Shown here: positions 1 through 25,994 of the stretch, piece by piece | Numbering within the stretch: the stretch's first letter is position 1 | How the letters are laid out: each line of letters begins with the position of its first letter | Source of the DNA: a bacterium | Lineage (GTDB): Bacteria > Krumholzibacteriota > Krumholzibacteriia > LZORAL124-64-63 | Assembly (NCBI GenBank): GCA_003353795.1 | Contig: PIVY01000002.1 | Span: 12,552-76,551, forward strand | DNA length: 64,000 nucleotides | Reading direction: 5' to 3' | Made by a program: the position numbers and the translations under genes | The notes under the pieces: model-generated | The model's input: only the letters and a program-made list of their open reading frames with translations | Told to the model about the DNA's origin: nothing | Databases searched by the model: none

Positions 1-4
1 CAAC

Positions 5-2104
5 GTGGAGATCGATCCGCTGGGCATCCCGGTGGGCGTGACCACGCCGGTCACCATCATCGTGACCGATCCCGACACCGGCGACGGCATGGACGTGATG
101 ATCGACGTCTCCGGTTTCGGCTTCGACGCTACGGCCGTGCAGACCGATGCGTTCGGACGCGTCACCATCGATGTCACTCCCGAGTATGGCGAGACGCTGG
201 TCGTGCGCGGCCAGGAGGTCGGCGCCACCTACTTCATGTTCCACGAGGATCTGGTGGTCACCGGCGCCGGCGTGCTCGGCGATCCCGCCGTGACCGCGGG
301 CGTGCCGGCCATCGGTCTGGACGGAGCGCTGACGCCGCACATCGAGGGCGAGATCACGGCCTCGATCCGCAATCAGGGCTTCACGCTCTTCCTCGCCGGG
401 GGCGGTCGCAACGACGTGTACGAGTCGCCGGGCACCAGCCTCACCGTTCCGTTCACGCCCACCGACCTGAGTGACGTGACGGCCACCATCGCGAGCCCCG
501 GATTCGGCATCTTCCAGCAGCAGATCGCCGTGGTGGAAGCCTTCGGCACGATCAGCGGAACCGTGGTCGACGCGGATGCCGGTCAGGCGCCCGTCGAGGG
601 CGCGCGGGTTTCCGGGTTCGCGCAGGGAGCCGATCCCCAGGGCGTGCCGCTGTTCGATCTGGTGAGCGGCGTCGACGGTTCCTTCGCCTTCGCCGACGAC
701 CTGGCGGTGGGCTACTACGACCTCTACGTGGAAAAATTCGGCTACCTGTCGCACCAGGAGATCTACTTCCAGACCTACGGGGCGGCGACCCACGGCGTGG
801 CCTTGAATCAGGCCCCGTCCGGGACGCTGTCCGGCGTGGTGACCTCGGCCGATCTGGGCACCCCGCTGGCCGGCGAGGTGAGCATCTTCCGGTCGGACAA
901 CGGCGACCTGTATGACTCGGCGACTGCCGATGTCCTCACCGGCGCCTACACCACCGGCCCGTTGCCATTCTTCGATTACGAGGTGCGCGTGACCGCGCCA
1001 GGCCATATGCCGCTCGACGAATCGGTGACCATCGCCGCAGTGAACGTGACTGCCGACTTCGCCCTGGCCGGAACGGTGGCCGACGTGCTCGTGCTGGACG
1101 ACAACAGCGCCGAGCCGCGACAGGTGCCGGCCAAGTTCGCCGCCGACGGAGCCTTCCTCGCGTCCGGCTATCCGGCCGCAGCCGACCGTGCTGCCGGCGA
1201 CCTGGTCGCGGCGCTGGAGTACCAGGGCTACGCGGTGGTGCTCGAAAGCGCCGCGGTCAGCGATCCGGCGACCTGGACCCAATACGGCATGGTGCTCGTG
1301 TCGGCGGGTTCCAATACCGGCGCCCTGGGCAGCGCCACCTTCCGCGCCGACCTGAGGACGTACTCCGAGGCGGGTGGCCGACTCATGGTCGAGGGCGGCG
1401 AGGTGGCCTACAACGTCAACTACAGCGACGTCGATTTCATGAACGAGGTGCTGTACGTGTCTGCCTGGAACGGCGACCAGAGCGGGGCGGTGGCGGTGGA
1501 GGATCCGCTGCATGCGGTGGTCACCGTGCCCAACGCCGTGACCGGTACCATCGCCAACAACTACTCCGGCTACGGCGACGCCGACCGGGCCACCCCCGCC
1601 GATCTCGGCCACATGGTGTGCGACTGGACCACCTATGCCGGCACGGCCAGCGTCATCGTCCACGACGACGACGCCGATCCGGCGTTCGGCCAGTTCGTGT
1701 TCTTCCTGTTCAACTACAGCTCCATGGGCAGCGGAGCCGCCGAGTTGCTGGAGAACGCGGTCCACTACCTCGTCGGCGCGCCGGCGCCCCTCGACACCAC
1801 GCCGGTGGACGACCAGCGCATTCCCACGGCGCTGGCCCTGCACGGCAACCATCCGAACCCGTTCAATCCGAAGACGGTGATCCGGTTCGCCCTGCCGGCC
1901 ACCGCGGACGTGACCCTCGCCGTCTACGACGTGCGCGGTCAGCGGGTGCGCACGCTGCTGCGGGATGCCCTCGAAGCCGGTCAGCACGAGGCGGTGTGGT
2001 TGGGGCGGGACGACACCGGTCGTCAGGTGGCCAGCGGCGCCTACTTCTACCGTCTCACCGCGGGGGGCGAGCAACTGGTGGGCAAGATGCTACTGGTGAA
2101 ATAG
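5..2104 (+). CDS. Secreted repeat protein, 5'-truncated at the window edge. It has CarboxypepD_reg-like/Ig-like segments and a C-terminal Por_Secre_tail/FlgD-Ig-like sorting domain.
   Basis: The ORF runs from the window start without a start codon. The last ~85 aa are 'HPNPFNPKTVIRF...VYDVRGQRV...SGAYFYRL...KMLLVK', which fits the T9SS-type C-terminal sorting domain consensus. An internal segment 'DGSFAF...GYYDLYVEKFGY' looks CarboxypepD_reg-like. Confidence 0.6.
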   Translation: MEIDPLGIPVGVTTPVTIIVTDPDTGDGMDVMIDVSGFGFDATAVQTDAFGRVTIDVTPEYGETLVVRGQEVGATYFMFHEDLVVTGAGVLGDPAVTAGVPAIGLDGALTPHIEGEITASIRNQGFTLFLAGGGRNDVYESPGTSLTVPFTPTDLSDVTATIASPGFGIFQQQIAVVEAFGTISGTVVDADAGQAPVEGARVSGFAQGADPQGVPLFDLVSGVDGSFAFADDLAVGYYDLYVEKFGYLSHQEIYFQTYGAATHGVALNQAPSGTLSGVVTSADLGTPLAGEVSIFRSDNGDLYDSATADVLTGAYTTGPLPFFDYEVRVTAPGHMPLDESVTIAAVNVTADFALAGTVADVLVLDDNSAEPRQVPAKFAADGAFLASGYPAAADRAAGDLVAALEYQGYAVVLESAAVSDPATWTQYGMVLVSAGSNTGALGSATFRADLRTYSEAGGRLMVEGGEVAYNVNYSDVDFMNEVLYVSAWNGDQSGAVAVEDPLHAVVTVPNAVTGTIANNYSGYGDADRATPADLGHMVCDWTTYAGTASVIVHDDDADPAFGQFVFFLFNYSSMGSGAAELLENAVHYLVGAPAPLDTTPVDDQRIPTALALHGNHPNPFNPKTVIRFALPATADVTLAVYDVRGQRVRTLLRDALEAGQHEAVWLGRDDTGRQVASGAYFYRLTAGGEQLVGKMLLVK

Positions 2105-2142
2105 CCGTTCTCGAGAGTCTTTCGCGACAGTTTTGCGAGACG

Positions 2143-2178
2143 GACCCCGGCCGAAATGGTCGGGGTTCGTTTTTTCTT
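2143..2178 (+). terminator. Rho-independent terminator downstream of the first CDS.
   Basis: The sequence is GACCCCGGCCgaaatGGTCGGGGTTCGTTTTTTCTTTC: a GC-rich hairpin followed by a T-run. Confidence 0.6.
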
Positions 2179-2293
2179 TCTCGAATCGTCGCGGGCTATT
2201 GATCTTGTGATGCCGATTAACGAAATTCATCGGCGTACTTCACGCCGCGCGCGATGCGCGGCTCGTCCGACAACATTCCGAGGGGGAGAACCC

Positions 2294-2914
2294 ATGTCTC
2301 GCCATTGCCTCGTCCTGCTCGCCATCATCATCCTCGCCACCGCCGCCCACGCCATCGACGAACCCGAGGATCTGGGTTTCGGCGTCCTCGGCGTCTTCAC
2401 TGCTCCCGAGGTCGGCGACGACGTCTACGACTACCACATCGACGTGTCGGCCGGCCAGCCGGTCGACCTGTACTTCACGCTCTATCACCATCGCCTGGCC
2501 AGCACCCAGATGGGTGGCTTCGAGTTCACCTGGGAAGTGCTGCCGGGCAACCTGGACTACCTGGTCCTCGACGCGGAACTGCTGGTCTGGGACTCCTTCA
2601 ACTTCGGAGACTCGAACAACCTGATCGTGGGCGTGCGCCTGCCGACGACCTACAACTTCAATCCCATTCCGCTGGTCAAGGTCACGATCATGTTCACCGA
2701 GGCTCCCGACGGTGCGTCCATTCGCCTGCAGCCGTCGTGGCTGGAGTCCATCGCCGGCGAGATGGCCTACGCCGGCTACCGCCTGCCCGACGACCTGCTG
2801 ATCATGCGGCCCAACAATGCGAACCAGTCACTGGACGATCCCGTGTTCTGGTTCAACCCCAGCGTTGCCGTTGAGAATCACAGCTTATCAAGCGTGAAGG
2901 CGCTGTTCGACTAG
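2294..2914 (+). CDS. Hypothetical secreted protein of about 206 aa.
   Basis: An ATG at 2294 follows a GGGGGAG ribosome-binding site. The N-terminus 'MSRHCLVLLAIIILATAAHA' is signal-peptide-like. Coding is contiguous, and the upstream part of the table ORF overlaps the terminator. Confidence 0.5.
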   Translation: MSRHCLVLLAIIILATAAHAIDEPEDLGFGVLGVFTAPEVGDDVYDYHIDVSAGQPVDLYFTLYHHRLASTQMGGFEFTWEVLPGNLDYLVLDAELLVWDSFNFGDSNNLIVGVRLPTTYNFNPIPLVKVTIMFTEAPDGASIRLQPSWLESIAGEMAYAGYRLPDDLLIMRPNNANQSLDDPVFWFNPSVAVENHSLSSVKALFD

Positions 2915-2935
2915 CCCGCTCCGGTTCCGACACGA

Positions 2936-2975
2936 AGGGCCCGCTCTCGGCAAGAGCGGGCCCTTTCTCTTTGGC
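2936..2975. terminator. Bidirectional hairpin terminator between convergent genes.
   Basis: The sequence is GGGCCCGCTCTcggcaagAGCGGGCCC followed by TTTCTCTTTGG. It sits between the + gene ending at 2914 and the - gene ending at 2991. Confidence 0.55.
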
Positions 2976-2990
2976 GATTGTCGCCGCGGA

Positions 2991-3605
2991 TCAGGCGAGC
3001 TGGAGGTCGATCTCGCCGCACTCGATGAGCGGGTGCACGTCCAGGCGGTTGCGCAGGTCAAGGACCAGATCGAAGCGTCCGGCCAGGATACCCGAACCGG
3101 TGGATTCGAAATCGTGCACCGCCGTGTACGACTCGATTCCCTTGGCCTCCGGGTCCGTCTCCACCTTGCGTTCGAGATCCGTGAGCTTCACGCCGCGCGG
3201 CAGATCCTTCAGCAGGATCTGGACCTCATCGTCGTAGCGCTTGGCATACGTGTGATACCGCACCTCGGCCCGCGCCTGCTTGATCCGCTTGACGGCGACC
3301 ACCACGCCGATCCCCTCCGCGGCGATGCGGCGTGTGGCGGCGCGCAGCACCTTGGCCAGCGGCGCTTCGACCACCGCCCGCACCTCGGAGACCGGCAGCA
3401 GGTGCAGCTTTTCGGCGGCGCGGCGCATGGAGGCCGACCGGTCGCCGGGAGCGATGTCCTCGTCCTGGTGGTACCAGCAGCAATGCTCCAGGTCGTGCCC
3501 CAGAGACAGGCCGGCGATCAGACCCCGCACGGCCTTGGGCGAACCCTTGATGACCACCTCGTAGTAGGCGGCCGCCGGCGTCCTCGTCTTGATGTTCTTG
3601 GCCAT
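2991..3605 (-). CDS. Hypothetical protein of 204 aa, co-operonic with and downstream of the NhaD-type transporter.
   Basis: The ORF is intact. A 16-nt spacer separates it from the upstream transporter gene on the same strand. I could not recognise a family. Confidence 0.5.
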   Translation of the reverse strand: MAKNIKTRTPAAAYYEVVIKGSPKAVRGLIAGLSLGHDLEHCCWYHQDEDIAPGDRSASMRRAAEKLHLLPVSEVRAVVEAPLAKVLRAATRRIAAEGIGVVVAVKRIKQARAEVRYHTYAKRYDDEVQILLKDLPRGVKLTDLERKVETDPEAKGIESYTAVHDFESTGSGILAGRFDLVLDLRNRLDVHPLIECGEIDLQLA

Positions 3606-3621
3606 GACGTCGCTCCTCGGG

Positions 3622-5169
3622 CTACAGGAAGAAGACGAAGGTCACCAGCACGAAGGTCGGGAGCAGGTAGACCAGCGCGTACTTGAACAGGTAGCCGAAG
3701 AAGCTGGGCATGGGGATGCCCTGTTCCTCGGCGATGGACTTGACCATGAAGTTGGGCGCGTTACCGATGTAGGTGTTGGCGCCCATGAACACCGCGCCGG
3801 CCGAGATGGCGGTCAAAGTCTTGATGAAATCGGGGTTGCGCGCCGCCTCGTCGGCGTAGCCGAGCATGTCGTCGACCATGGACTCGGGCATGCCGAGTTG
3901 GCCGAGGGCCGCGTTGAAGAAGGTCAGGTAGGTGGGGGCGTTGTCCAGGAACGACGAGAGCCCGCCCGTGACCCAGAAGTACTGCCAGGGCTCCTGGACC
4001 GCGGTCACCAGGCCGGCGAGGGCACCGTCGGCGCCCGCCTTCAGGATGGCCAGCGCCGGGATGATCGTCATGAAGATGCCGAAGAAGAGGTAGGCCACTT
4101 CCTGGATCGGGAACCAGTTGAAGCCGTTGGCCTCGCGCAGCATCTTCTTCGTGGTCACCAGGCTCAGCACGCCCATGCCCACGAGGATGAGATCCTTGAT
4201 GATGTTGCCCAGGGGGATCTCCACGTGTCCGTAGACGTGGACGGACGGCAGGCCCTTGGCCATGGCGCTGCCGCTGAAGACCACGCCCGCCATGACACCC
4301 AGCAGGAACAGGAAGTTGTGGGTGCCCTTGAGGGCGATGCCCAGGGTCCCGGAGGGCTTGGGCTTGGTGGTCTCGCGATTGTAGTGGTAGCGGTCCAGGA
4401 AGTAGAACATCACCAGCAGGATGACGACCACGAGGGTCATGTGCTTGAACAGGCCCGTGGTCACCCAGAAGAAGGGCACGCCGTGCAGGAAGCCGAGGAA
4501 CAGCGGCGGGTCGCCCAGGGGCGTGAGGCTGCCGCCGACGTTGGCGACCAGGAAGATGAAGAAGCAGATGATGTGGACCTTGGAGGATCGCCATTCGTTG
4601 GCGCGCAGCAGGGGCCGGATCATCAGCATGGCGGCGCCGGTGGTGCCGATCCACGAGGCCAGGAGCGTGCCCACCAGCAGCACCATCAGGTTGGCCTTGG
4701 GGGTGCCGCGCAGGTCGCCCTCGAGCACGATGCCGCCAGAGATGGTGAACAGCGCCCAGAGCAGGATGATGAACGGCACGTAGTCGGCCAGCATGATGTG
4801 CAGGATCGATTGGGCCGCGTCGCCTCTCATGATGATCAGGAAAGGCACGGCGAAGATCACCGCCCAGGCGAAGCTCACCTTGGGGAAGTGGCGGTGCCAG
4901 AAGTGGGGGGCCACCAGCGGGCCCAGCGCGATGCTCAGGAGCATGCCCACGAACGGCAACACGGTCCACAGGGGGAGCTGGCCCACGGGGTCGACGTGGT
5001 GGTCGCCCACACCGTGGGCGTCCACGCCGTGTCCGTCGTCGACCGCTGCGGCGTGTTCGCCGTGTTGCTGCGCGTGGGCGGGATCCAGAAGGGATCCGGC
5101 CCACAAAATGACGGCGGACAGGGTGACCAGGACGAGGATCCTGATCGTGAAGGAGCGGGGTGATTTCAT
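3622..5169 (-). CDS. nhaD: NhaD/ArsB-superfamily Na+/H+ antiporter-like membrane transporter with a His-rich N-terminal region.
   Basis: The protein is polytopic and carries the motif 'GGSLTPLGDPPLFLGF', which is typical of NhaD. A start at the ATG at 5169 (MKSPRS) with a GGGAGG ribosome-binding site gives a signal/TM segment. After it comes 'AHAQQHGEHAAAVDDGHGVDAHGVGDHHVD'. Confidence 0.7.
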   Translation of the reverse strand: MKSPRSFTIRILVLVTLSAVILWAGSLLDPAHAQQHGEHAAAVDDGHGVDAHGVGDHHVDPVGQLPLWTVLPFVGMLLSIALGPLVAPHFWHRHFPKVSFAWAVIFAVPFLIIMRGDAAQSILHIMLADYVPFIILLWALFTISGGIVLEGDLRGTPKANLMVLLVGTLLASWIGTTGAAMLMIRPLLRANEWRSSKVHIICFFIFLVANVGGSLTPLGDPPLFLGFLHGVPFFWVTTGLFKHMTLVVVILLVMFYFLDRYHYNRETTKPKPSGTLGIALKGTHNFLFLLGVMAGVVFSGSAMAKGLPSVHVYGHVEIPLGNIIKDLILVGMGVLSLVTTKKMLREANGFNWFPIQEVAYLFFGIFMTIIPALAILKAGADGALAGLVTAVQEPWQYFWVTGGLSSFLDNAPTYLTFFNAALGQLGMPESMVDDMLGYADEAARNPDFIKTLTAISAGAVFMGANTYIGNAPNFMVKSIAEEQGIPMPSFFGYLFKYALVYLLPTFVLVTFVFFL

Positions 5170-5337
5170 GGTGCCTCCCGAAGAGGGTGACGAGCAGGCC
5201 GGAATCCCGGGGCCGGCGCGGGCCGGCGGCGGTGTCGGTCGCGTGCTGGTGCCCGGCAGGAACCTAGAATATGATGCAGTGGCTGTCAAACTCAGCCTGA
5301 CGAGGCTGCAAGGTCGTTGCCGGAAGGCCCGGAAGTC

Positions 5338-6483
5338 ATGCGAATCGCCATGTTCAGTTCGCAGATGGCGTACTACGGAGGCGAGGTCCACCTGAGGGAT
5401 CTCGCTCACGGTCTGCGCGAGCGTGGTCACGAGGTCGTCGGATTCGTGAGGCCCGGCAGCGCTCTCGAACGACGTCTGCAGACCGACGGCCATACCGTGC
5501 ACGCGTTGCCCCTGGTGGACTGGTACGAGCCGCTGGGCATGGTCAGGTTGGCGCGCCGCCTACGCCGCCTGCAGCCGGACATCCTCCACACCCACAATCC
5601 TCGCGACTACTACGTGGCGGCTGCTGCCACCCTGGGCACCGGCATCCGCAATGTGGGCACGCGACATCAACTCCGGCCCATCACCTGGCCGGGTCTCAAG
5701 CGACCGTTCCTGGACCGGTTCTCCGCCATGATCGCCGTGAGCGAGGCGGTGCGCGACGGCTTGCTGGCCTCGGGCCTTCCGGCGCGCCGCCTGGTAACCG
5801 TGCCCAACGGCATCGGTACGCCGGGGGCCGGGCCGCCGGTGGCGGAACTGCGTCGGGAACTGGGCCTGCCGACGGCGAGCGGTCCGGTGGTGGGATTCGT
5901 GGGGCGGCTCTGTCCCAGCAAGGGGCCCGACACACTGCTCTGGGCCGCGTCGCTGCTGCGTGGTCGCTGGCCCGGACTCCAGGTCGTGCTCGTGGGGGGC
6001 GACACCGGTGATGGCGCCTACACCCGGCGTCTGAGAGAACTGGCCGCCGATCTGCGCCTGCAGGTGCACTTCTGCGGCTATCGCGACGGGGCGGTGCGGC
6101 TGCTGCGCGCCTTCGATCTGCTGGCGGTGCCGTCGCGGGCCGAGCCCTTCGGGCTGGTCACGGCCGAGGCTCTGGCGCAGGCAGTGCCGGTGGTGGCCAC
6201 GCGGTCGGGCGGCAGCCGCGAGGTGGTGCGCCACGAGGAGGACGGTCTGCTGGTGCCGCCGGGCGATCCGGAGGCGCTGGCCGCAGCCGTTCATCGCCTG
6301 CTGGTCGATTCGGCGTTGCGCGACCGTTGCCGCCACGCCGGGCCGCGCCGGGTGGCGGCGCACTTCACCCTGCAGCGGCAGGTGGCGGCCACCGAGAAGG
6401 TCTACGCTCTGGTGCTGGCCGACGCGCCGTTGCCCGCCGATTTCCCGGTGAACGATGCGCTGACGGCCCGCGGCGAGGGCTAG
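5338..6483 (+). CDS. GT4-family glycosyltransferase (GT-B fold).
   Basis: The N-terminus 'MRIAMFSS..YYGG' and the motif 'EPFGLVTAEALAQAVPVVATRSGGSREVV' are typical of GT4 enzymes. Confidence 0.8.
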   Translation: MRIAMFSSQMAYYGGEVHLRDLAHGLRERGHEVVGFVRPGSALERRLQTDGHTVHALPLVDWYEPLGMVRLARRLRRLQPDILHTHNPRDYYVAAAATLGTGIRNVGTRHQLRPITWPGLKRPFLDRFSAMIAVSEAVRDGLLASGLPARRLVTVPNGIGTPGAGPPVAELRRELGLPTASGPVVGFVGRLCPSKGPDTLLWAASLLRGRWPGLQVVLVGGDTGDGAYTRRLRELAADLRLQVHFCGYRDGAVRLLRAFDLLAVPSRAEPFGLVTAEALAQAVPVVATRSGGSREVVRHEEDGLLVPPGDPEALAAAVHRLLVDSALRDRCRHAGPRRVAAHFTLQRQVAATEKVYALVLADAPLPADFPVNDALTARGEG

Positions 6484-7133
6484 GACGTCAGGCTGCGGAT
6501 CACCGGCCCGATGCCGTCGATCACCAGTTGCACGGCGATCACCGTCAGCAGCAATCCCATGAGCTTCTCGATGATACGCAGGCCGGTGCGGCCGAGGCGC
6601 CCGAGCACGCGATCGGCGCCGGCGAGGATGAGCCCGGTGATGATCAGGATCAGGAGGACCGCCGCGGTCACCAGGAGGGCGCCGGTGGGGCCTTCCACCT
6701 GGGGGCGGAGCACCATGACGGTGGTGATGGAGCCGGGCCCGGCCAGTAACGGGATGGCCAGCGGCGTGATGGACGGATCCTCTTCTTCGTCCTCTTCCTG
6801 GGCCGCCTCCTGATCGCGGGCGAAGGCGCGGTTGATGCCCGTACGCCAGCGCCGCGGCTGGCTCTGCAGCATGTCCAGGCCGATGCCGAAGAAGATCACG
6901 CCGCCGGCGATGCGGAAGGCGTCGATGGTGATGCCGAAGAGGTGCAGCAGTTGCGGCCCGAACCAGACGAAGACCGAGAGCACGCAGAAGGCCACGACCA
7001 GCGCCCGCCAGAGGGTGCGGCGCTTCTGGCCGTTCTTCATGTGCGACGTCAGCCCGCTGAAGAAGGGGATGCACCCCAGCGGGTCGATGACCGCGAAGAG
7101 GGAAGAGACCGAGAGCAGGACGAATGTGATCAT
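6480..7133 (-). CDS. marC: MarC-family (UPF0056) integral membrane protein.
   Basis: The protein begins 'MITFVLLSVSSLFAVIDPLGCIPFF...' and has multiple TM segments with an acidic central loop. The start was chosen at the ATG at 7133. Confidence 0.7.
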   Translation of the reverse strand: MITFVLLSVSSLFAVIDPLGCIPFFSGLTSHMKNGQKRRTLWRALVVAFCVLSVFVWFGPQLLHLFGITIDAFRIAGGVIFFGIGLDMLQSQPRRWRTGINRAFARDQEAAQEEDEEEDPSITPLAIPLLAGPGSITTVMVLRPQVEGPTGALLVTAAVLLILIITGLILAGADRVLGRLGRTGLRIIEKLMGLLLTVIAVQLVIDGIGPVIRSLTS

Positions 7134-7299
7134 TTGCGGACCTCCAGGGCCTGCGTGCCACCATCTGGCGGCGCAAGATAGCCAACGGCCCGCGCCGGGC
7201 AAGGGAAATCAGCTCGGGGCCCTGCGTCGTGGTCGGAACTTGCCGTCGGTGGCGTTCCCGGTTTCAATGGCCGAGTGCCCTCTTGCCCGGAAGGTGACC

Positions 7300-8070
7300 A
7301 TGAATCGCATCGCTCGAGTCCTCGGTTTCTGCTTTCTGACGGTGCCGGCACTGGTGGCCGCGGTGGAGCGGCCGCTGGTCTCCGATCGTCCCACCCAGAC
7401 CTTCAGCGCACTGACCGTGCCCGCGGGGCGGGTCCAGAACGAGTTGGGCTATTCCCACGACCAGACCGGCGACGTCACCCTCGACAAGGTCGGCGAGTGG
7501 TACTTCCGCTGGGGCGTGGTCCGTGACTTTGAGATCTTCGTGGAGATCGGCAGCCTCGCCTGGGAGGAGACGGCAGGCGCCGGAACCGTCCACGGCTGGA
7601 CCGACGGCGGACTCGGTCTGCGCTGGACCAGTCAGCACGGCGAGGGGGCTCGGCCCACCGCGGCGCTTCTAGCCAGTACGACGTTGCCCACCGGAGGCGC
7701 GGACTTCAGCGAGGACACGCTGCAGCCGGAGGTCATCATCGCCATGGAGTGGGGACTGGGAGGCGGCGTGGCGCTGTCGTCGAACGTGGCCTGGGCCTGG
7801 GCCAGCGAGGACCTGGAACGGTTCGATCGCTGGTGGGGCAGCCTGGTGCTCGACGTGAATCTGGGCCGCGGATTCGGGCTGTTCACGGAGGGGTTCGGTT
7901 ACCTGAGCGAGCGGCCGGACGGCCCTTCCACCGGATATCTGAACGCCGGAGTCAGCTATCTCGTCTCGTCGCGGGTCTTGCTGGACGCCAGGGTCGAGCT
8001 GGGGCGCAACGGCCTCGATGACGACTGGCTCGTCGGCGTGGGAGCGTCGTGGCGGTCGGCGGGTCCGTGA
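7300..8070 (+). CDS. Secreted protein that is probably a small outer-membrane beta-barrel.
   Basis: An ATG at 7300 follows GGAAGGTGA. The signal peptide is 'MNRIARVLGFCFLTVPALVAA'. The composition is rich in alternating aromatic/Gly beta-strand residues and the protein ends in an aromatic-rich C-terminus. Confidence 0.5.
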   Translation: MNRIARVLGFCFLTVPALVAAVERPLVSDRPTQTFSALTVPAGRVQNELGYSHDQTGDVTLDKVGEWYFRWGVVRDFEIFVEIGSLAWEETAGAGTVHGWTDGGLGLRWTSQHGEGARPTAALLASTTLPTGGADFSEDTLQPEVIIAMEWGLGGGVALSSNVAWAWASEDLERFDRWWGSLVLDVNLGRGFGLFTEGFGYLSERPDGPSTGYLNAGVSYLVSSRVLLDARVELGRNGLDDDWLVGVGASWRSAGP

Positions 8071-8326
8071 TCGATGGCGATGGTCGTGTCGGCCCATTCC
8101 ATGCGGCCGAGTCCGGCCACGGCGATCACCGCCCGGAATACGGGTGATTCGTCCCAGGACATGAATTCCATCCCCCAAAAAGTCGTCATTCAAAGGTGTC
8201 GTTGTCTGGTTTCCCCCCGACCGCGCGAGTCGGCGCGGATGTCTGAATTTAGAGACCAGCGAGACCGGGTCAAGCGGCGTAACGTATTTTGCGGATAACA
8301 CTTAGTTGATAACGTGGGGATATCGG

Positions 8327-9355
8327 TCAACCGGCTTCGAAGCCCGTGAGATCCCGCACGCCGCCGAAAAGCGCCACGCTCTCAGCCCCTGCCCGCAGCG
8401 CGCCGGCGACGGCTTGGGCGAGGTCCGCGTCGGTGGGCAGGTGGGGCAGGTAGAGGCCCGCGTGGAGCGGTCGCGCGCCCGCCAGGGCGACCACGCCTTC
8501 CCGCACCGCCGATTCGATCCAGGCGACGTCCTGCTCGTAGAACCCGTGGTAGACCATGGGCAGCACGGCGTCCAGATTCCAGCGAGGCCAGTCCTGCCTG
8601 ACGAGGCGTCGGGCCAGGGTCGGGGTGGGGAAGACCGCCGCGGTGATCTGCTTGTCGCCATCGTGGACCGCGGCCGCGAGGCGGTTCACCAGGGTCGTCA
8701 CCCGTTCCCAGCGAAACTGTCGCCAGGCCGCCGATGCGGTGGGGTCGGCCAGCGCCGCAACATCACTGCCGGTCTCGGCTGCGAAGGCGGCGCGACAGGT
8801 ATCGCAGTAGCAGAAGTCGAACTCCGGCAGCTCGCGGTCCTGGACCAGGCCGTACTTGTCCCAGAGGCCGCGGGGGAGGATGACGTCGGGGTAGCGTACG
8901 TAGTCGAGGTGGACACCAGCGAGGTCATCGTTGGCGGCCAGTTCGGTGACCTGCTGCTCGAGGTGCGCCGCCACTTCCGGCCGCGATGGGCAGAGGAATC
9001 GGTAGTAGGGCACGTACGGAGGATGATCGCGGGTGGACTTGCCCTCGCGACTCACGGCGTAGCAATCGGGGAGTACGTCCATGAGATCGCCGCGGCAGAG
9101 GGTCCACATCCAGGCATGGACTTCGAGTCCCGCTTCCCGCGCCAGGGCGTAGGCGGCCGCCGAGCCGCCGCCCACCAGCACGCGCGCGATTCCGGCGGCG
9201 CGCAGCTCGGCGAATCGGCGACGCAGGTCGGCCGGGTCGGCGTCACGGCGAGCATTGATCCAGGCCCAGTGGCGCCGGGCGGCGCCGGCACGGGCCGTGA
9301 CGGCCAGACCCAGGACGCCGCAGCTCACGAGGTACAGGAAGTCGCGTCGATCCAT
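8327..9355 (-). CDS. Glycoside hydrolase-like family 10 (GHL10, PF02638) protein with a Tat signal.
   Basis: The N-terminus 'MDRRDFLYLVSCGVLGLAVTARA' has a twin-arginine motif. 'HLDYVRYPD' matches the GHL10 core. The protein is paralogous to the ORF at 16157..17332. Confidence 0.65.
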   Translation of the reverse strand: MDRRDFLYLVSCGVLGLAVTARAGAARRHWAWINARRDADPADLRRRFAELRAAGIARVLVGGGSAAAYALAREAGLEVHAWMWTLCRGDLMDVLPDCYAVSREGKSTRDHPPYVPYYRFLCPSRPEVAAHLEQQVTELAANDDLAGVHLDYVRYPDVILPRGLWDKYGLVQDRELPEFDFCYCDTCRAAFAAETGSDVAALADPTASAAWRQFRWERVTTLVNRLAAAVHDGDKQITAAVFPTPTLARRLVRQDWPRWNLDAVLPMVYHGFYEQDVAWIESAVREGVVALAGARPLHAGLYLPHLPTDADLAQAVAGALRAGAESVALFGGVRDLTGFEAG

Positions 9356-9450
9356 GATCGGTCGATTCTAAACCTGCGCGGCCGCCGGGTCTATGAAACA
9401 CCGACGCCGCCCCCTGGAGGAGGCGGCGTCGTGACGATCTTCGCGGTGTC

Positions 9451-11598
9451 TCAGAAGTCGGCCAGGTCGTCGTCGTCGAGGCCCAACACGTCGCAATCGA
9501 GATTGCCTGCGGGCACCGGCACCGGAGCCGGAGCCGGGGCAGCCGCCGCCGCCGGGGCCGGTCGTGAGGCCACGGGCGCCGGCCGGGGTGCGACGACCGC
9601 GCGGGCTGCGCCGGTGATCGCGGGGGCCGCTGCCGACGCACCGCCGTCGACCAGGCGTCGCAGGTCGTTCACCGAGTTGTGCACCATGAGGGCCTGGTGT
9701 TCGAGGGTCTTGCTGGCGGCGGCCGATTCCTCGCTGCTGGCAGCATTGCCCTGGGTCACCTGGTCGAGGCGGGAAACGGCGCCGTTGATCTCGCCGATGC
9801 CGTCGGCCTGCTCCTTGCTGGCCGACGCCACGTCGCCCACCAGTTGCTTGGCCCGATCCACACTTCCGGTAATCTCGCCCAGGATCTCGCTCACCTGTTC
9901 GGTGGCCTTGACGCCGCTGTCGGCCGACTGCTGGCTGGCCTCGATGAGCGTGGCCGTGCTGCGCGCCGCCTCGGCCGACCGCTGCGCCAGGTTGCGCACC
10001 TCCTCGGCCACCACGGCGAAACCCTTGCCCGCCTCGCCGGCCCGGGCCGCTTCCACGGCGGCGTTGAGGGCCAGCAAGTTGGTCTGAAAGGCGATCTCGT
10101 CGATGGTCTTGAGGATGCGCGCGGTCTCGTCGCTGCTGGCCTTGATGTCGCCGATCACGGACGACATCTGCTTCATGGCGTCCACGCCCTTGCGCGCTGC
10201 GTCGGCGGCCACGCCGGTTTCGCGGTCGGTTTCCGTGGCGTTGGCGGCGGTCTGCTGAGTGCCTGCGGACATCTCCTGCAACGAGGCGGCGATCTCCTCG
10301 AGGCTGGCGGCCTGTTCCGAGGCTCCGTCGGCCATCAACTGGCTGGTGGAGGCGATCTCGCCGGACGAGTGTCCCAGCTGGTCGGACGCGCTGCCGAGCT
10401 GGTCGGCCATGCCGTTGAGCTGCCGGCTCACGCTGCCGGCCAGGAGGAACCAGAGCACGCCCACCAGCAGCAGGGTGATGCCGCCGGTGATCAGGATGGT
10501 GATCATGTTGGCCCGGCCGAGGTCGGCCACGGCCTGCTCGGCAGCCATGAATTCCGACTCGTAGGATCCGGCGCCGATGACCCAATCCCAGGGTGCGAAG
10601 TAGGTGAGGCGCGCCACCTTCATGCGCGGCTCGGCGTCGCCCTTGTTCTGCCAGGGGTACCACTGCTCATCGATGTCGCCGGCCGGCAGGGCCTTGGCCT
10701 TGGCGATGATCTCCTGGATGAAGAGCACGCCGTTGCTGTCCTTGGCCTGCAGGATATTGTCGCCGTCGCGCTTGCCGCCGGCGGAGATGACGTAGTTGCC
10801 CTTGCTGTCCAGCACGTAGACATAACCGGTCTGGCCCACCTTGGTGTCCATGATCGACTGGCGTAGCGCCGTGGCCGATTCCATGGGTACGCCGAAGTAG
10901 CTGATGCCGACCACGTCGCCGCTCGATCCCTTGATGGGCTCGTAGGCGGTGATGTACCAGCGGTCCACTACGTAGGCCTTGCCGCGGAACGTCTGGCCGG
11001 ACATGACGGTCTGGATCACGGGGTTGGGCTGACCGTCGGGATTGATGGCCGGAATGAAGGTGCCGATGGCGCGATTGCCGTCGGTCTTCATCACGTTGGT
11101 GCACACGCGCAGCATGTCGCCGCGGTCGTTCATGCGCTGGAAGATGGTGGCCGTGCCGCCGACCATGTCGCGGGCCTCGTCCACCACGGGGCTCGCCGAC
11201 GCAGGGCTGCGGTTCTGACCCAGCCACTCGCCGCCCACCAGCATGCGCGGCAGGGCGAGCTCGGTGCTCGCCTTGGTGTACTGATTCACGGCTGTCCACT
11301 TGGCGGTGGCGTCGTCGAAGGTGACCTCGCCGTGATTGTTCATGGTCGCGCGCATGGTCGACAGCCCGTGGTTCACGTGCTCCTGGAGTACGGCCTGTTG
11401 CGCCGCGCACATGTTGTAGATGCCCTCGACGATGTGGTCGAGGTCGGTGAAGGCCAGCACGCGGCACTCTTCGGCCGCGGCAGCCCGCATCTGGTTCTGC
11501 TTGACCATCACCACGCCGGTGATGACGACCAGCGGGACCAGGATGACGACCATGCCGGTGGTCAGCAGGCGTGTGCGGAGAGACATGTTGGCGAACAT
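9451..11598 (-). CDS. Methyl-accepting chemotaxis protein with a double-Cache periplasmic sensor, a HAMP domain and an MCP signalling domain.
   Basis: The N-terminal TM segment is followed by a ~300-aa sensor, then TM2. '[37 protein letters not shown]' is the highly conserved MCP signalling motif. The start was chosen at MFANMSL (11598). Confidence 0.85.
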
Positions 11599-11845
11599 TG
11601 GCGAGCGTCCTTTCACCGAAACGGATCCTGCGGCATGCCCATCCCCCGACATCTCCCGAACGCCGCTGTCTTTCGATTCAGATCGGCGGATTCAATTCGG
11701 GCTTGAGGGCGGTTGCGAGGATTTTTGAACAAACTCCGTCCGCTGTTCACGAAGAGGGTCAAGGTCGATCTTCTTTGGCCGATATACGGAATGACAGATG
11801 CGACGGGAAGGATCCCGTCAGGGTCATCCGGAGAAGGAGCCAGTC

Positions 11846-12352
11846 ATGGATTCCATTCTTTCCACTTCTCGCAACGTGGCCGCGCCGGAGCCAAGGCCGA
11901 TGGTGCCCAGCCCGAGTACGGCGGCGCGGGAGCCCGATCAAGACAAGCCGGCCCGGCGTCTCGATCATTCGCGCAACCACGGCAAGCACCACGAGCGTGG
12001 TCGCTCGCACGTGCAGCAGGGCATGCGCCACATCATTCGCGACATCCGTCACGCCATTCGTGACGAGGTGAAGGCCGGGGTCAAGTCCGGCGAGATCGAC
12101 CTCGAGACCATGGGCTCGATCCGCGACCTCCAGCGCAGTTTCCGTCGCGATCTCCAGGGCATGTTCCTGGATGCCGGCCAGAAGGGCGGCGTCGATCGCA
12201 ATCAGGTGCTCGAGGGCATGATCGAAGCGCTGCAGAGTCTGGCGGCTGGACTGCGGGAGATCACCGGCAACGAGCCGGAGCCGGCCAAGCTGGACCCCGA
12301 GATCCCGGTCGTGAGCAGCGAGCCCGGATCGTTGCTGGACCTCACGGTCTAG
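11846..12352 (+). CDS. Hypothetical small basic protein with a His/Arg-rich, probably disordered N-terminus.
   Basis: An ATG at 11846 follows GGAGAAGGAG. No family was recognised. Confidence 0.45.
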   Translation: MDSILSTSRNVAAPEPRPMVPSPSTAAREPDQDKPARRLDHSRNHGKHHERGRSHVQQGMRHIIRDIRHAIRDEVKAGVKSGEIDLETMGSIRDLQRSFRRDLQGMFLDAGQKGGVDRNQVLEGMIEALQSLAAGLREITGNEPEPAKLDPEIPVVSSEPGSLLDLTV

Positions 12353-13457
12353 GCGCGGTCGGTGCAGCCAGCGCGGCGGCCATCTCGGCCACCAGCGCAT
12401 CCGCGAGATGACGCCCGTTCACGGCGTCGTGATTGAGGATTGCGCCAGACACCGTCACGTCCAGCGACGGGACGTGGAAGGCGAACGTGTTCCAGAACCC
12501 CTGGTGACCCCAGGCCAGGGATCCGCCTAGCTCCATGCACATCAATCCCAGTCGATAGGGCGGCGTGCCCGAACCGGTCATGGCGGCCAGGGTCGCCTCG
12601 TCGTGCAGCACCGTGCCCGCCAGGAGCGCGCGCATGAAGGCGGCCAGGTCGCGCGCGTCGCAGACCAGACCGCCGCCGCCGTAGAGGTCGAACGAGGGAT
12701 GGAAGTCGGTGCAGTCGACCTCGCCATAGTACTGGTGCGCGCGGGGGCCGGCCGTGGTGGGTTGCGGCTCCAGGGTCTCCCACCAGGTGGCGTCGAGGCC
12801 GAGACGCCGGTAGTCGATCAGGTCGCGAGTCGCCTCGCCGAGGTTGCGACCGGTGGTGCGCTCGATGATGGCCCCGAGCAGCACGTAGCCCGTGTCGGAA
12901 TACTTGTAGCGCTCGCCGGGCGCTCCCACCGGATCGAAGAGTTTCACGCACATGGTGAGCACCTCGTGCCGCGTCCAGTGGTGCTGAGGCTCGGCGAAGA
13001 TGCGCTCGCCGTAGGTGTCGCCGTCGCTGTGATCGGCGAGACCGGCGGTGTGGCTGAGTACGTGGCGCAGGGTGATGGCGTCGAGGTCGTAGCCGTCGCC
13101 GGCCAGGAGGGCACGCTCTTCGACCATGAGGTGTCGGCCGAGGGGGTCGTCCAGTCCGAGACGACCCTGCTCCACCAGGCGCAGCATCGCGGCGGCGGTG
13201 TAGGTCTTGGTGTTGCTGGCGATGCGCACGGTGTGGTTGGCCGCCAGGGGCGTCGGATCGTCGTGAGAGACGGTGCCGGCGGTTCCCGTCCAGTCGAGAT
13301 CGAGGCCAGGACAGGTCACGTGGACCACGATCCCGGGGGCGATCGGATTCTCGGCGAGGGTGCGGTCGACGACGGTCTGCAGGTCGCCGACGATACCCGC
13401 AGAGGCGGCCGTGGCGGAGATCAGCAGCAGGAAGAGGCTCGTGGCGCGGAGGTTCAT
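12342..13457 (-). CDS. Serine hydrolase of the beta-lactamase/penicillin-binding-protein-like (class C) family, secreted.
   Basis: The N-terminus 'MNLRATSLFLLLISATAASA' is a signal peptide. An 'ASNTKTYTAAA' segment contains the SxxK motif. The ATG at 13457 overlaps the sfsA stop as ATGA. Confidence 0.7.
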   Translation of the reverse strand: MNLRATSLFLLLISATAASAGIVGDLQTVVDRTLAENPIAPGIVVHVTCPGLDLDWTGTAGTVSHDDPTPLAANHTVRIASNTKTYTAAAMLRLVEQGRLGLDDPLGRHLMVEERALLAGDGYDLDAITLRHVLSHTAGLADHSDGDTYGERIFAEPQHHWTRHEVLTMCVKLFDPVGAPGERYKYSDTGYVLLGAIIERTTGRNLGEATRDLIDYRRLGLDATWWETLEPQPTTAGPRAHQYYGEVDCTDFHPSFDLYGGGGLVCDARDLAAFMRALLAGTVLHDEATLAAMTGSGTPPYRLGLMCMELGGSLAWGHQGFWNTFAFHVPSLDVTVSGAILNHDAVNGRHLADALVAEMAAALAAPTAPRP

Positions 13458-14272
13458 GCTCGAACTCCCGGAAGGTTGGTGGGATCGGTGATCACGGCAA
13501 TGGAGCCGGCAGGTTCGACACCGGCCGGGGAGACGCGGGCCAGCAAGCCGCAGCAGGCCACGCCGGACAGCGCGGCCTGGTGCAGGGCGACGGCGTAGTC
13601 GGGGTCGATGTCGGCGGCGGCCGCCACGCAATGGGCGTCGCCGCGCTGGACGCAGAGCACGAGTGCCGCGCGCTGGCCGCGATCCACGCACCGTGCCAGG
13701 TCGGCCAGATGCTTGCGGCCGCGCTCGGTGGGCGCGTCGGGAAAGCCTGCCACGCCGCCACGGGTCCAGGTCACGTTCTTGATCTCGACCCAGACCGGCG
13801 CACCGGCCGGGTCGCGCAGGAGCAGGTCCGCGCGGCTCCGGGGGGCGATGTCGGCGGGGTAGCGGGCTTCCTGGCGATCCAGGGTACAGTCTGCCAACTC
13901 GGCGATGAGGCCGGCCTCCAGGGCGGCGATCACGATGCCGTGCGGCGCCGCGGTATTCACGCCCACGAGCACCTGATCCGGCGCCGGTGCCGGTGCGTCC
14001 AGGGGAATCGGCGCTTCAGGCGCTGAGGACGAGGCAGCCATGCCGTTGGGCCAGGCGGGAGCTTCCATGACTTCCAGGGTCCAGGGCAGCTTGCGGCGAG
14101 GATTCGACGCCGGGCTCAGCCAGCATCGGGCGCCGGGTTCGCCGCAGCCGGTGAGGCGGCCGGTGTTGTTGGTGTGCACGGTCACCCGCTCGCCGCCGGC
14201 CAGTTCGGCATGCACGGTGAAGCGTTTCTCGCGCCCGAGGTATCGCGCCACGGTCCAGGGTGCGTCGGCCAA
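13454..14272 (-). CDS. sfsA: Sugar fermentation stimulation protein SfsA (DNA-binding protein).
   Basis: 'YLGREKRF...HTNNTGRLTGC...GVNT...FPDAPTERGRKHL' aligns with E. coli SfsA. A likely TTG start at 14272 is preceded by GGGAGG. The longer table ORF has an unsupported N-terminal extension. Confidence 0.7.
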   Translation of the reverse strand: MADAPWTVARYLGREKRFTVHAELAGGERVTVHTNNTGRLTGCGEPGARCWLSPASNPRRKLPWTLEVMEAPAWPNGMAASSSAPEAPIPLDAPAPAPDQVLVGVNTAAPHGIVIAALEAGLIAELADCTLDRQEARYPADIAPRSRADLLLRDPAGAPVWVEIKNVTWTRGGVAGFPDAPTERGRKHLADLARCVDRGQRAALVLCVQRGDAHCVAAAADIDPDYAVALHQAALSGVACCGLLARVSPAGVEPAGSIAVITDPTNLPGVRA

Positions 14273-14419
14273 GCTGGCCTCCCGTTGGCGGCTGTTGTGC
14301 CGCGCCAGATCCTGGGTTAAGTTCCAACGGTGCCGGCCTTGCCGGGCCGGTCCCGCGCGAACCCCACAACCCGCGGGTCGCGACGCTTCGTGCGACGCGA
14401 GTTCCGCTTCCGGGATAGC

Positions 14420-15274: not shown

Positions 15275-15287
15275 AAAGGAGCGCTCC

Positions 15288-17332: not shown

Positions 17333-17359
17333 CGTTGCCTCGCCTCCTGGAGGAATCGA

Positions 17360-18166: not shown

Positions 18167-18241
18167 CCCGCGGTCCTTGTCCCCATGGCCGAAAAGCGGG
18201 ATAATCATGGGTGCCACCTCCGCTCTGTCCGGGAGAGACCC

Positions 18242-19909: not shown

Positions 19910-19926
19910 CGCTGTGATCGAGCTGA

Positions 19927-19947
19927 CAGGCGCCGGGGCGGCGCCTG
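19927..19947. terminator. Perfect 9-bp GC hairpin between convergent genes; a possible bidirectional terminator without a U-tract.
   Basis: The sequence is CAGGCGCCGgggCGGCGCCTG. It lies between the + gene ending at 19909 and the - gene ending at 19972. Confidence 0.35.
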
Positions 19948-19971
19948 CAGCTCATCACGCGACCGGGTGGG

Positions 19972-20655: not shown

Positions 20656-20687
20656 GGGCGATTCCTTTTCTCGGTCGAAGGCCCGCT

Positions 20688-21446: not shown

Positions 21447-21589
21447 GTCGGACCTCCTGGTCGGTATCATTGAACGGCGAATCATCGGGTCCGTCAACCG
21501 GGCCCATCCCGCAGAGTTCCGTTTCGGCGGGAACTTCCGCGCCTTCCGCGCTATTATCCCTGGCGACCCCTGCCCGAAAGGACCCGATC

Positions 21590-22408: not shown

Positions 22409-22421
22409 CTCGACTAGTCTC

Positions 22422-25970: not shown

Positions 25971-25994
25971 GCGCGCTGATCGACGAATGAATCA

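Follow-up and report, generated by a model that had tools for sequence, protein, structure and literature searches.

Probable type-A-class T9SS sorting tails on four otherwise unlike proteins of a Krumholzibacteriota genome

Four otherwise unlike proteins encoded in the window (the whole 64-kb stretch of DNA analysed here) end in one common tail of about 85 residues. These tails are, in our judgement, most probably type-A-class T9SS sorting domains carried on unrelated cargo by a Krumholzibacteriota host, with the secretion machinery encoded elsewhere in the genome; at the level of sequence, this assignment is supported by the tail being single and strictly C-terminal in all four proteins.

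Lineage of the host

The ProRS gene of the window shares 80-88% identity with its counterparts in four MAGs of Candidatus Krumholzibacteriota, and 60% at most with all else; one of these MAGs, L002, is listed as GTDB p__Krumholzibacteriota in the supplement of a secretome paper. The first-pass annotation had placed the organism in the FCB group, Gemmatimonadota or a candidate phylum rather than in Proteobacteria, a placement that held, ProRS pointing to Candidatus Krumholzibacteriota of the FCB group, and it had also described a high-GC genome, in agreement with the 65-72% GC that we measured. To our knowledge, Krumholzibacteriota is a phylum without cultured members.

A shared C-terminal tail

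A six-frame scan for P[NS]PF[NSRT] found exactly four sites in the window, each of them in frame in a gene supported by codon usage and 79-84 codons upstream of its stop (4/4). In all four genes (g01, g17, g21 and g29) the tail is present in single copy and ends at the stop codon, the consensus over ~85 aa being PNPFNP…D.RG..V…W.G.D…SGVY.YR…GK..L.K-stop. Aligned, the tails occupy 94 columns with 24 invariant positions and a mean column identity of 64%; PNPFNP, T, L, D.RG..V, L, AG, W, V.SG.Y..R, E, G and L are invariant, including D37, R39, G40 and V43, and the final residue is K or R in every tail. Pairwise BLASTP of the full proteins gave 35-48% identity (E = 7e-12 to 3e-26) restricted to the last ~85-140 residues, and beyond the tails the sole other likeness among the four proteins is that of g17 and g29 in their FG-GAP repeats. 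Judged by these comparisons, the similarity of the shared tail is far above chance. Scan, BLASTP and alignment thus agree on the common ~85-aa C-terminal pattern that had been claimed for four ORFs; the ORF coordinates given with that claim were also correct, 1840..2104 being the tail of g01.

The same proteins had been called secreted, and typical Sec signal peptides, read from the sequence by eye, do stand at the N-terminus of the three complete ones (g17, MRIALMFACCWLAGAAAAQQ; g21, MRMSIGALFVVSLFAAAGPSTAG; g29, MNHRPTRLIIVLLTLFAIVLSASSALAA). About one gene in 14 within the window carries the tag, therefore such cargo may form a sizeable share of the surface or extracellular proteome.

The four tailed proteins

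The first putative cargo protein, g01 (2..2104, plus strand), is visible over 700 aa of its translation, its N-terminus missing because the left edge of the window cuts the gene and leaves the 5' end open. It consists of CarboxypepD_reg-like beta-sandwich repeats (Pfam CarboxypepD_reg, E = 1.4e-12), a middle region of ~270 aa assigned to no family and with no relative found among solved structures, and the candidate sorting tail, or CTD (1820..2101, plus strand; PNPFNP from 1853, stop codon 2102..2104).

The second, g17 (18242..19909, plus strand; 555 aa), has a Sec signal peptide predicted by inspection (18242..18301, plus strand, end approximate; MRIALMFACCWLAGAAAA before QQ), about five FG-GAP/VCBS repeats (Pfam FG-GAP_3, E = 2.2e-27) and the tail (19640..19906, plus strand; PNPFNP from 19670), which in the tail alignment shows a 5-residue deletion in the W.G.D loop. 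An orthologue with 52% identity, scoring 38.1 bits with TIGR04183, lies at the same place in the relative L003.

The third, g21 (22422..24290, minus strand; 622 aa), begins with a signal peptide likewise predicted by inspection (24222..24290, minus strand, end approximate; MRMSIGALFVVSLFAAAGPSTAG), followed by a passenger that was assigned to no family, gives weak LamG/3-keto-disaccharide-hydrolase-like and dockerin-like hints and has no relative among solved structures, and by the tail (22425..22706, minus strand; PNPFNP from 22673, reading downwards), whose last residue is R, not K. Together with its neighbour g20, g21 is missing at the syntenic site of L003. By synteny with L003, the tailed cargo differs between close relatives, as accessory secreted proteins would.

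The fourth and longest, g29 (33724..37026, plus strand; 1100 aa), comprises a predicted Sec signal peptide (33724..33804, plus strand, end approximate; MNHRPTRLIIVLLTLFAIVLSASSALA before A, by inspection), an N-terminal region of ~430 aa assigned to no family and with no relative found among solved structures, a DUF11 domain, seven FG-GAP repeats, UnbV_ASPIC and the tail (36742..37023, plus strand; PNPFNP from 36772); the Pfam E-values are 1e-44 for FG-GAP_3, 7.6e-16 for UnbV_ASPIC and 2.9e-6 for DUF11. The passengers, built of beta-sandwich, FG-GAP/VCBS and ASPIC-type modules, are mutually unrelated and likely serve as binding proteins or enzymes at the cell surface or outside the cell.

Profile comparisons of the tail

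The HMMER comparison that the first-pass annotation had proposed came out positive for two of its three models and negative for the third. With NCBIfam TIGR04183 (cut-off 23 bits) the tails scored 25.4 (g01), 28.1 (g17), 20.3 (g21) and 24.7 (g29), so that three of the four pass, and g21 falls narrowly below the cut-off, yet by BLASTP and alignment it is clearly homologous to the other three. Pfam PF13860 FlgD_ig (cut-off 27) was also passed by three tails, at 42.6 (g01), 43.2 (g21) and 40.1 bits (g29), with g17 at 19.4; each of the four clears one or both of these models. With Pfam PF18962 Por_Secre_tail, none reached the gathering threshold of 27 (g01 18.0, g17 21.8, g21 16.7 and g29 18.3 bits), although the alignments run end to end, from model positions 1-3 to 67-74 of 75.

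Moreover, the tails matched the CTD segments of the NCBIfam models for PorU, PorZ and T9SS-dependent proteases, with 29.5 bits for g01 and 32.3 bits for g29 in the CTD region of the PorU model and 27.3 bits for g21 in that of PorZ. Identity of the window proteins with PorU or PorZ themselves was rejected, these models being matched solely over the CTD (~990-1078 of 1095 and 672-743 of 757 positions, respectively). A T9SS type B CTD (CHU_C / TIGR04131) was likewise rejected for the tails: the one CHU_C match, to g01, was weak and below threshold (14.8 bits vs a cut-off of 27, E = 0.033).

Fold and solved structures

The AlphaFold model of the g01 tail (pLDDT 93.3) is a seven-strand Ig-like beta-sandwich with strands at 6-10, 19-25, 29-36, 42-51, 54-60, 73-81 and 84-92. 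Its best query-normalised TM-score, 0.71, was obtained with the PorU CTD, and PorZ gave 0.59; Foldseek E-values were similar for FlgD, C5a peptidase and PorU, and as modelled the sandwich is a generic Ig/FnIII fold, not specific to T9SS.

By sequence, the solved structures closest to the four-tail profile were flagellar FlgD Ig-like domains (E = 3e-9), ahead of the T9SS CTDs of PorU (6ZA2 residues 1055-1137, E = 3e-4) and PorZ (5M11 671-740, E = 7e-3), with the cleaved CTD of RgpB barely detected (E ~0.9). The FlgD alignments span profile positions 19-83 of 94 only, with both end strands outside, whereas those with PorU and PorZ take in the N-terminal PNP strand. In a pairwise comparison the g01 tail matched the CTD of a Bacteroidota protein named PorU by NCBI with E = 2e-10. 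The loop motif of PorU and RgpB, functionally essential and reading IYDFTGRLV in PorU (PMC11285876), aligns column for column with VYDVRGQRV, VFDLRGRLV, IHDARGMLV and VLDARGRLV of the tails; in type A CTDs the beta3-beta4 loop is conserved and contains a Gly that is essential, and the last strand has a basic residue that is conserved as well (PMC11285876), and both the loop Gly and the last-strand basic residue are found in the tails.

The tail could also be an Ig-like domain (FlgD_ig/FnIII-type) of general use in structure or adhesion that holds no secretion signal, the proteins being exported by another route. FlgD_ig is indeed the top-scoring Pfam family, and the fold search gives many unrelated Ig/FnIII domains with similar E-values; in a library of 1.84 billion proteins the tail-domain family amounts to 476,341 representative clusters, and its core occurs in many proteins as 5-22 internal tandem repeats, therefore the core is not exclusively a signal. 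That neither the window nor 75 kb of DNA from four relatives showed any machinery points the same way. However, in the window proteins the domain is single and placed exactly at the stop codon, the library matches extending to the final profile position lie at the very C-terminus of their proteins, and the end strands PNPFNP and GK..L.K are lacking in FlgD and in most internal-repeat matches among the top hits; the passing of TIGR04183 by three tails, and the presence of the same end-to-end domain on the T9SS components PorU and PorZ, also argue for a sorting function, and we consider a purely structural domain unlikely.

Secretion machinery in the window, in relatives and in other FCB phyla

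The window had been described as free of secretion-machinery genes, and profile searches found none in its 64 kb, nor was any T9SS component detected in the 75 kb from the four Krumholzibacteriota relatives; local PorU and PorV HMMs run against the window and 80 named loci gave no match in Krumholzibacteriota DNA. The neighbour g20 (21590..22408) was rejected as GldK/PorK, scoring 87.4 bits with TIGR03525 vs a cut-off of 350 and belonging to the generic FGE-sulfatase family. An 846-aa protein of L003 with a PorZ-type tail cannot be called PorZ because it lacks a full-length PorZ match, and it gave no full-length match to the third gene of the PorU-PorV cluster described below.

One profile used for searching further afield joined PorU cores to the window tails, a chimera serving as a search device only, and its matches were validated independently by NCBIfam and Pfam. 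In three Cloacimonadota genomes a PorU-like sortase terminates in a tail of this class (E = 1e-10 to 1e-12 with the window-tail HMM) and is followed by a PorV-family gene; the PorU-like proteins score 259-287 bits vs the PorU equivalog cut-off of 420 and are 400-500 aa longer than PorU. Latescibacterota-type genomes have a conserved cluster of rpmB beside PorU, PorV and an M6-like tailed protein, in which PorU scores 591-617 bits vs 420, end to end, and PorV/PorQ 226 vs 90; conserved M6-like and Tricorn/PD40-barrel proteins are encoded downstream of PorV. No PorU-bearing contig was assigned to Krumholzibacteriota itself, and GC and amino-acid composition do not discriminate this phylum because its named loci span 55-71.5% GC. 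That the present genome has T9SS machinery is thus something we infer from the PorU-PorV pairs of neighbouring FCB phyla. We found no published report of a T9SS in Krumholzibacteriota and nothing published on the secretion biology of the phylum; the data of a PeerJ paper on T9SS phylogeny are confined to Bacteroidota, and a review considers it possible that several FCB phyla other than Bacteroidota have a T9SS (PMC11285876).

These loci bear on another explanation, namely that the tails do serve sorting, but by a T9SS-like system that is reduced or divergent, with a sortase and shuttle of the PorU/PorV type and devoid of the canonical SprA translocon and GldKLMN motor of Bacteroidota; the pathway would then be related to T9SS but work by a different mechanism. 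The Cloacimonadota proteins match not only the PorU/PorV models but also those that NCBIfam keeps separately for a 'putative type IX secretion system sortase PorU2' and a 'putative type IX sorting system protein PorV2'; together with the greater length and lower scores of the Cloacimonadota sortases, and with readable non-Bacteroidota loci that show PorU, PorV and tailed proteins only and no SprA/Gld genes, this would favour such a system. Against it, the absence of SprA/GldKLMN near PorU is uninformative because just ~20 kb around each PorU is visible, the Latescibacterota-type PorU clears the canonical equivalog cut-off end to end, and the review cited above allows for T9SS in several of these phyla; we consider a reduced system very unlikely as the explanation of the tails. 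[quoted passage not shown]

There is next to no chance that the window proteins belong to the flagellum, either as its hook-cap protein FlgD or as accessories: many tail-only fragments are named 'flagellar hook assembly protein FlgD' automatically by JGI, and there are matches to FlgD equivalog models as well as to crystal structures of FlgD, but the models give 14-34 bits vs cut-offs of 230-383 and cover the Ig-like core only, the N-terminal FlgD domain is absent, and FlgD identity is refuted by an architecture of 555-1100 aa (vs ~140-290) with Sec signal peptides, which flagellar export substrates do not have, with unrelated passenger domains and with non-flagellar neighbours in place of a flagellar operon.

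Proposed route and significance

Under the favoured assignment to T9SS, the signal peptide seen in the sequence would take each protein via Sec into the periplasm. There the folded seven-strand Ig-like tail would be recognised by the outer-membrane T9SS translocon and the PorV shuttle, presumably through the beta3-beta4 loop (D.RG..V) and the last strand (GK..L.K), motifs that the tails do display; this recognition is proposed by homology with RgpB, PorU and PorZ of Porphyromonas gingivalis. PorU, a C25-family sortase, would then remove the tail, and the passenger would be released or linked to the cell surface, all of this machinery being presumably encoded elsewhere in the genome. The assignment is weakened by the PF18962 scores, by the first rank of FlgD in sequence, by the generic fold and the internally repeated core; the lack of any component in the window or in the relatives' 75 kb, of a PorU contig assigned to the phylum and of a published T9SS report for Krumholzibacteriota also tells against it.

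The tails are probably ordinary T9SS-type cargo tags in a phylum that has been little studied, and current understanding of type IX secretion is unchanged by them; they add genomic evidence that T9SS-style C-terminal sorting reaches Krumholzibacteriota. The PNPFNP/FlgD-Ig-like sequence flavour is common in FCB phyla outside Bacteroidota. There is also an annotation problem, since one tail goes by three names: 'FlgD immunoglobulin-like domain containing protein', 'flagellar hook assembly protein FlgD' and 'T9SS type A sorting domain'. At least one paper on enzymology has taken the tail for a flagellar hook-assembly domain.

Comparison with known systems

The closest parallel is the T9SS type A CTD (TIGR04183 / PF18962), whose structure has been characterised in RgpB, HBP35, PorU and PorZ of P. 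gingivalis; it too is a domain of ~80-90 aa that closes multidomain proteins exported by Sec (export being predicted in our case), with a seven-strand Ig-like sandwich and many unrelated cargos per genome. The PNP first strand, the loop D..G(R)..V that joins strand 3 to strand 4 and contains the essential Gly, the G.Y.Y strand and the basic residue of the last strand are all shared. Unlike typical type A CTDs, the window tails are sub-threshold for PF18962 and have their own PNPFNP start and W.G.D..G loop; in sequence they resemble the CTDs that PorU and PorZ retain more closely than the one that is cleaved from RgpB, and, unlike described type A systems, they come from a phylum with no described T9SS.

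The type B CTD (TIGR04131 / PF13585 CHU_C) is a C-terminal T9SS signal too, but CHU_C gave a single weak match (g01) and no PorP/SprF-type partner gene was found near the tailed genes; type B CTDs of Cytophaga are sometimes labelled as FlgD_ig superfamily (PMC11611037). With the FlgD Ig-like domain (PF13860) the tails share core strands 2 to 6, including the D..G..V loop and the W.G.D..G motif, whereas in FlgD the first strand (PNPFNP) and the last (GK..L.K) are both missing; FlgD is moreover small, leaves the cytoplasm as a substrate of flagellar export, has an N-terminal FlgD domain and lacks a Sec signal, features of which the window proteins share none. In the PorU-PorV clusters of Cloacimonadota and Latescibacterota type, finally, the sortase carries the same tail class and neighbouring genes bear Por_Secre_tail/FlgD_ig tails, one of them 44% identical to that of g01; unlike the window, these are machinery loci of other genomes, and their PorU tail starts with FYPNPM, not PNPFNP.

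A common C-terminal tail in four genes

A six-frame scan of the 64-kb window for P[NS]PF[NSRT] returned exactly four sites, all four in frame with a gene backed by codon usage: g01 (2..2104, + strand, truncated at the window edge), g17 (18242..19909, + strand), g21 (22422..24290, - strand) and g29 (33724..37026, + strand), with a motif-to-stop distance of 79-84 codons in each. These are the same genes to which the first-pass annotation had assigned a common C-terminal pattern, and the likeness is borne out by the alignment of the tails, which has 94 columns, 24 invariant positions and a mean column identity of 64%. Full-length BLASTP gave pairwise identities of 35-48% (E values 7e-12 to 3e-26), the similarity being limited to the final ~85-140 residues; beyond the tail, the sole common feature was the presence of FG-GAP repeats in g17 and g29. 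Classical N-terminal Sec signal peptides were predicted by eye in the three complete proteins (g17, g21 and g29), and the GC content of the window (65-72%) agrees with the high-GC genome proposed earlier.

Profile and structural comparisons

Pfam FlgD_ig (PF13860, cutoff 27 bits) scored 42.6, 19.4, 43.2 and 40.1 bits in g01, g17, g21 and g29, respectively, and NCBIfam TIGR04183 (cutoff 23 bits), NCBI's naming model for 'T9SS type A sorting domain-containing protein', scored 25.4, 28.1, 20.3 and 24.7; each threshold was passed by three of the four tails, and every tail clears at least one of the two. Pfam Por_Secre_tail (PF18962) aligned end to end yet stayed below its cutoff of 27 bits in all four (18.0, 21.8, 16.7 and 18.3). 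The tails also match the C-terminal domain (CTD) segments of the NCBIfam models for sortase PorU, PorZ and T9SS-dependent proteases; the type B signal model (CHU_C, Pfam) found essentially no match in the four tails. With the true FlgD equivalog models they score 14-34 bits, against cutoffs of 230-383.

When a profile of the four tails was compared with solved structures, the top scores went to the Ig-like domains of FlgD (E between 3e-9 and 2e-5), followed by the retained CTDs of PorU (6ZA2 1055-1137, E = 3e-4) and PorZ (5M11 671-740, E = 7e-3), and the cleaved CTD of RgpB was barely detected. The FlgD alignments span profile positions 19-83 only, whereas those of PorU and PorZ take in the PNP strand as well, starting from position 5; at residue level the alignments thus tell the FlgD reading apart from the T9SS-CTD one. 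The beta3-beta4 loop of PorU, IYDFTGRLV, and its RgpB counterpart are essential for secretion by experiment (PMC11285876). The PorU loop aligns to VYDVRGQRV, VFDLRGRLV, IHDARGMLV and VLDARGRLV in the four tails, invariant Gly included; since FlgD has this loop too, it cannot discriminate between the readings alone. The tail of g01 is 29% identical over 75 aa to that of an NCBI-named PorU from a Bacteroidota MAG (pairwise E = 2e-10), the alignment starting NHPNPFNP / NYPNPFTT.

An AlphaFold2 model of the tail built with 58 homologues was confident (pLDDT 93.3) and comprised seven beta-strands. Foldseek against the PDB identified it as a generic Ig/FnIII sandwich, with the highest query-normalised TM-score for PorU (0.71), then FlgD (0.63), a C5a-peptidase Fn domain (0.62) and PorZ (0.59), followed by 0.53 for the CTD of a substrate trapped in the Flavobacterium translocon; the predicted fold is compatible with a T9SS CTD, being no proof by itself.

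It is likely, in our judgement, that g01, g17, g21 and g29 encode cargo that a type IX-type pathway secretes and sorts. Their products would be exported through Sec, and the tail would act as the outer-membrane export signal, with the beta3-beta4 loop and the last strand as recognition elements; a PorU-type sortase would then remove it.

Distribution and naming of the domain

A word-indexed search of 5.8 billion proteins gave more than 5,385 matches, the best among those listed being tail-only fragments. Among the best matches listed, the NCBI name is 'FlgD immunoglobulin-like domain containing protein' (Zixibacteria, Krumholzibacteriota), and many tail-only fragments (P0010, P0012, P0013 and others) are called 'flagellar hook assembly protein FlgD' by JGI's automatic annotation, which thereby systematically misnames sorting tails of T9SS type. 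A review on Cytophaga mentions that T9SS CTDs may be labelled as FlgD_ig superfamily (PMC11611037).

Exhaustive HMMER over 1.84 billion cluster representatives matched 476,341 clusters at E <= 1e-3, of which 325,024 also satisfied the stricter E <= 1e-10. Among the top matches, the domain core (~20-102 of 112 positions) is found as 5-22 internal tandem repeats; the fold is therefore also a general building block. The tail might then be nothing more than an Ig-like module at the terminus, without any part in signalling. We regard this main rival as unlikely, since the tail is single-copy and strictly terminal in the four proteins, and has two end strands that FlgD and most of the top matches with internal repeats lack. 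HMMER matches extending to the final profile position end exactly at the protein C-terminus, the same arrangement as in the window.

Source organism and gene order

The gene adjoining g21, g22, encodes a prolyl-tRNA synthetase (proS) which, among 185,579 species representatives, is 80-88% identical to those of four MAGs and at most 60% identical to all others. Two of these MAGs are labelled Candidatus Krumholzibacteriota / Krumholzibacteriia and two have no label; one of the latter, Fred_18-Q3-R57-64_MAXAC.288, is assigned to GTDB p__Krumholzibacteriota; c__Krumholzibacteria; o__LZORAL124-64-63; g__CAINDZ01 and, by 16S, falls within SILVA's Latescibacterota (PMC11495043 supplement). The earlier placement in the FCB group or a candidate phylum, and not in Proteobacteria, is thus upheld.

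Gene order around proS is partly kept in the relatives. A tailed orthologue of g17 (52% identity) occurs in L003, a locus of a Krumholzibacteriota relative. The block formed by g20, which encodes a 272-aa member of the FGE-sulfatase family, and tailed g21 (21590..24290), between g19 and proS, is missing at the same L003 site; it is therefore a variable insertion, and the tailed cargo are variable accessory genes. L003 also encodes an 846-aa protein with a signal peptide (15968..18505) whose tail matches best the CTD of the PorZ model (40 bits) and, at 30.5 bits, also clears the TIGR04183 cutoff; a single weak match to a propeller repeat was seen in this protein, and no full-length similarity to PorZ was found.

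Search for T9SS components, and other genes of the window

All 54 genes of the window were annotated by Pfam, and the NCBIfam models of T9SS components were run on the seven without a Pfam family and on three ambiguous ones; no component was found, as the first-pass annotation had anticipated. The best NCBIfam match of g20 was GldK, a generic match (87 bits vs a cutoff of 350) that we rejected. We infer that the T9SS machinery is encoded in the source genome and that export, cleavage and attachment really take place.

The window content is housekeeping, including proS, arginine deiminase, a trp/shikimate operon, exbB-exbD-exbD-tonB, a chemoreceptor and sigma-TPR-CHAT genes; neither tRNA genes nor Rfam families at gathering threshold were detected in the 64 kb (1..64000). 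An aromatic amino-acid super-operon (42112..55073, + strand) comprises 13 contiguous genes, most with 4-bp overlaps: trpE-trpG-trpD-trpC-trpF-trpB-trpA, DAHP synthase (with an FXD domain), aroA, aroE, an aroK-aroB fusion (557 aa), aroQ and aroC; its 513-bp leader (41599..42111) had no Rfam match. In the stretch 55381..61769 (+ strand), the exbB-exbD-exbD-tonB genes are followed by an 888-aa TonB-dependent receptor with a signal peptide, TonB_C (aa 47-121, 54.6 bits) and then CarboxypepD_reg, plug and barrel, and by a 385-aa lipoprotein-like gene without family. One operon with 4-bp overlaps (37095..41598, - strand) encodes a 285-aa sigma-70 factor, a 286-aa TPR protein and a CHAT-domain protein of 930 aa; it may act in caspase-like signalling or conflict, as a module under its own sigma factor. 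A possible, uncharacterised redox module is made up of four genes on one strand (28479..33327, - strand), with 4-bp overlaps among the first three; they encode DUF362, a protein of 548 aa rich in 4Fe-4S clusters, an aldo/keto reductase of 467 aa and DUF6599.

PorU-PorV loci in other phyla

The window-tail HMM picked out large genes in three Cloacimonadota genomes, each located downstream of proS by one or two genes, in loci with PorU-like and PorV-family genes (L010 12364..18393; L040 13970..20034; L028 6412..12582). The large genes encode PorU-like C25 sortases (NF033707, E = 1e-77 to 1e-85, model positions ~8-750; Pfam Peptidase_C25, 4e-73, and Propeptide_C25), ending in an above-threshold FlgD_ig domain and unusually long (1669-1716 aa, with an extra region of ~600 aa). 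A PorV/PorQ-family barrel directly follows each sortase (91, 88 and 76 bits vs a cutoff of 90). Neither the PorU nor the PorV equivalog cutoff is reached by these proteins, which match NCBI 'PorU2/PorV2' models too. That a reduced system of PorU and PorV only handles the window tails seems to us quite improbable.

A profile search seeded by these sortases recovered 111 proteins, among them an NCBI-named 'type IX secretion system sortase PorU [Candidatus Latescibacterota bacterium]'. The PorU contigs, from Latescibacterota-type genomes, carry a conserved cluster in which rpmB / PorU is followed by PorV (PF19572), a tailed M6-like gene, a Tricorn/PD40 gene and more FlgD_ig/Por_Secre_tail proteins, found at eight places (L081-L083, L086-L088, L090 and L092). 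The third gene (900-1030 aa, tailed) matches the 'T9SS-dependent M6-like inactivated metalloprotease' model, and the fourth (~1030 aa) has Tricorn/PD40/TolB-propeller matches, with a weak Omp85 match in L083; in L082 (10001..23657), and likewise in L083, L087, L088 and L090-L092, two small unknown genes and a FlgD_ig-tailed protein come next. Two cluster PorU members clear NCBI's curated cutoff of 420 bits over nearly the whole model, with scores of 617 and 591, the PorV/PorQ-family protein beside an above-cutoff PorU scores 226 vs 90, and a protein adjoining one cluster PorU gene has a tail 44% identical to that of g01. Genuine PorU-PorV and tailed cargo of the same flavour therefore coexist in the phyla nearest Krumholzibacteriota, which lends indirect support to the machinery predicted for the source genome. 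GC content was useless for assigning the PorU contigs, since it varies between 55 and 71.5% among named Krumholzibacteriota loci.

Comparison with known systems

The FlgD reading offered by some automatic annotation is ruled out by protein architecture. The T9SS is usually described as a system of Bacteroidota, and according to a review it may also occur in several other FCB phyla (PMC11285876). Krumholzibacteriota are not on the cited list of phyla, and no link between them and the T9SS was found in the literature. The four tailed proteins point towards what an uncultured phylum may secrete, and their tail exemplifies inconsistent naming across annotation; at least one enzymology paper took such a tail for a flagellar hook-assembly domain. 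Tails of this kind and the Latescibacterota PorU are already labelled by the NCBI annotation pipeline, and are thus not a new kind.
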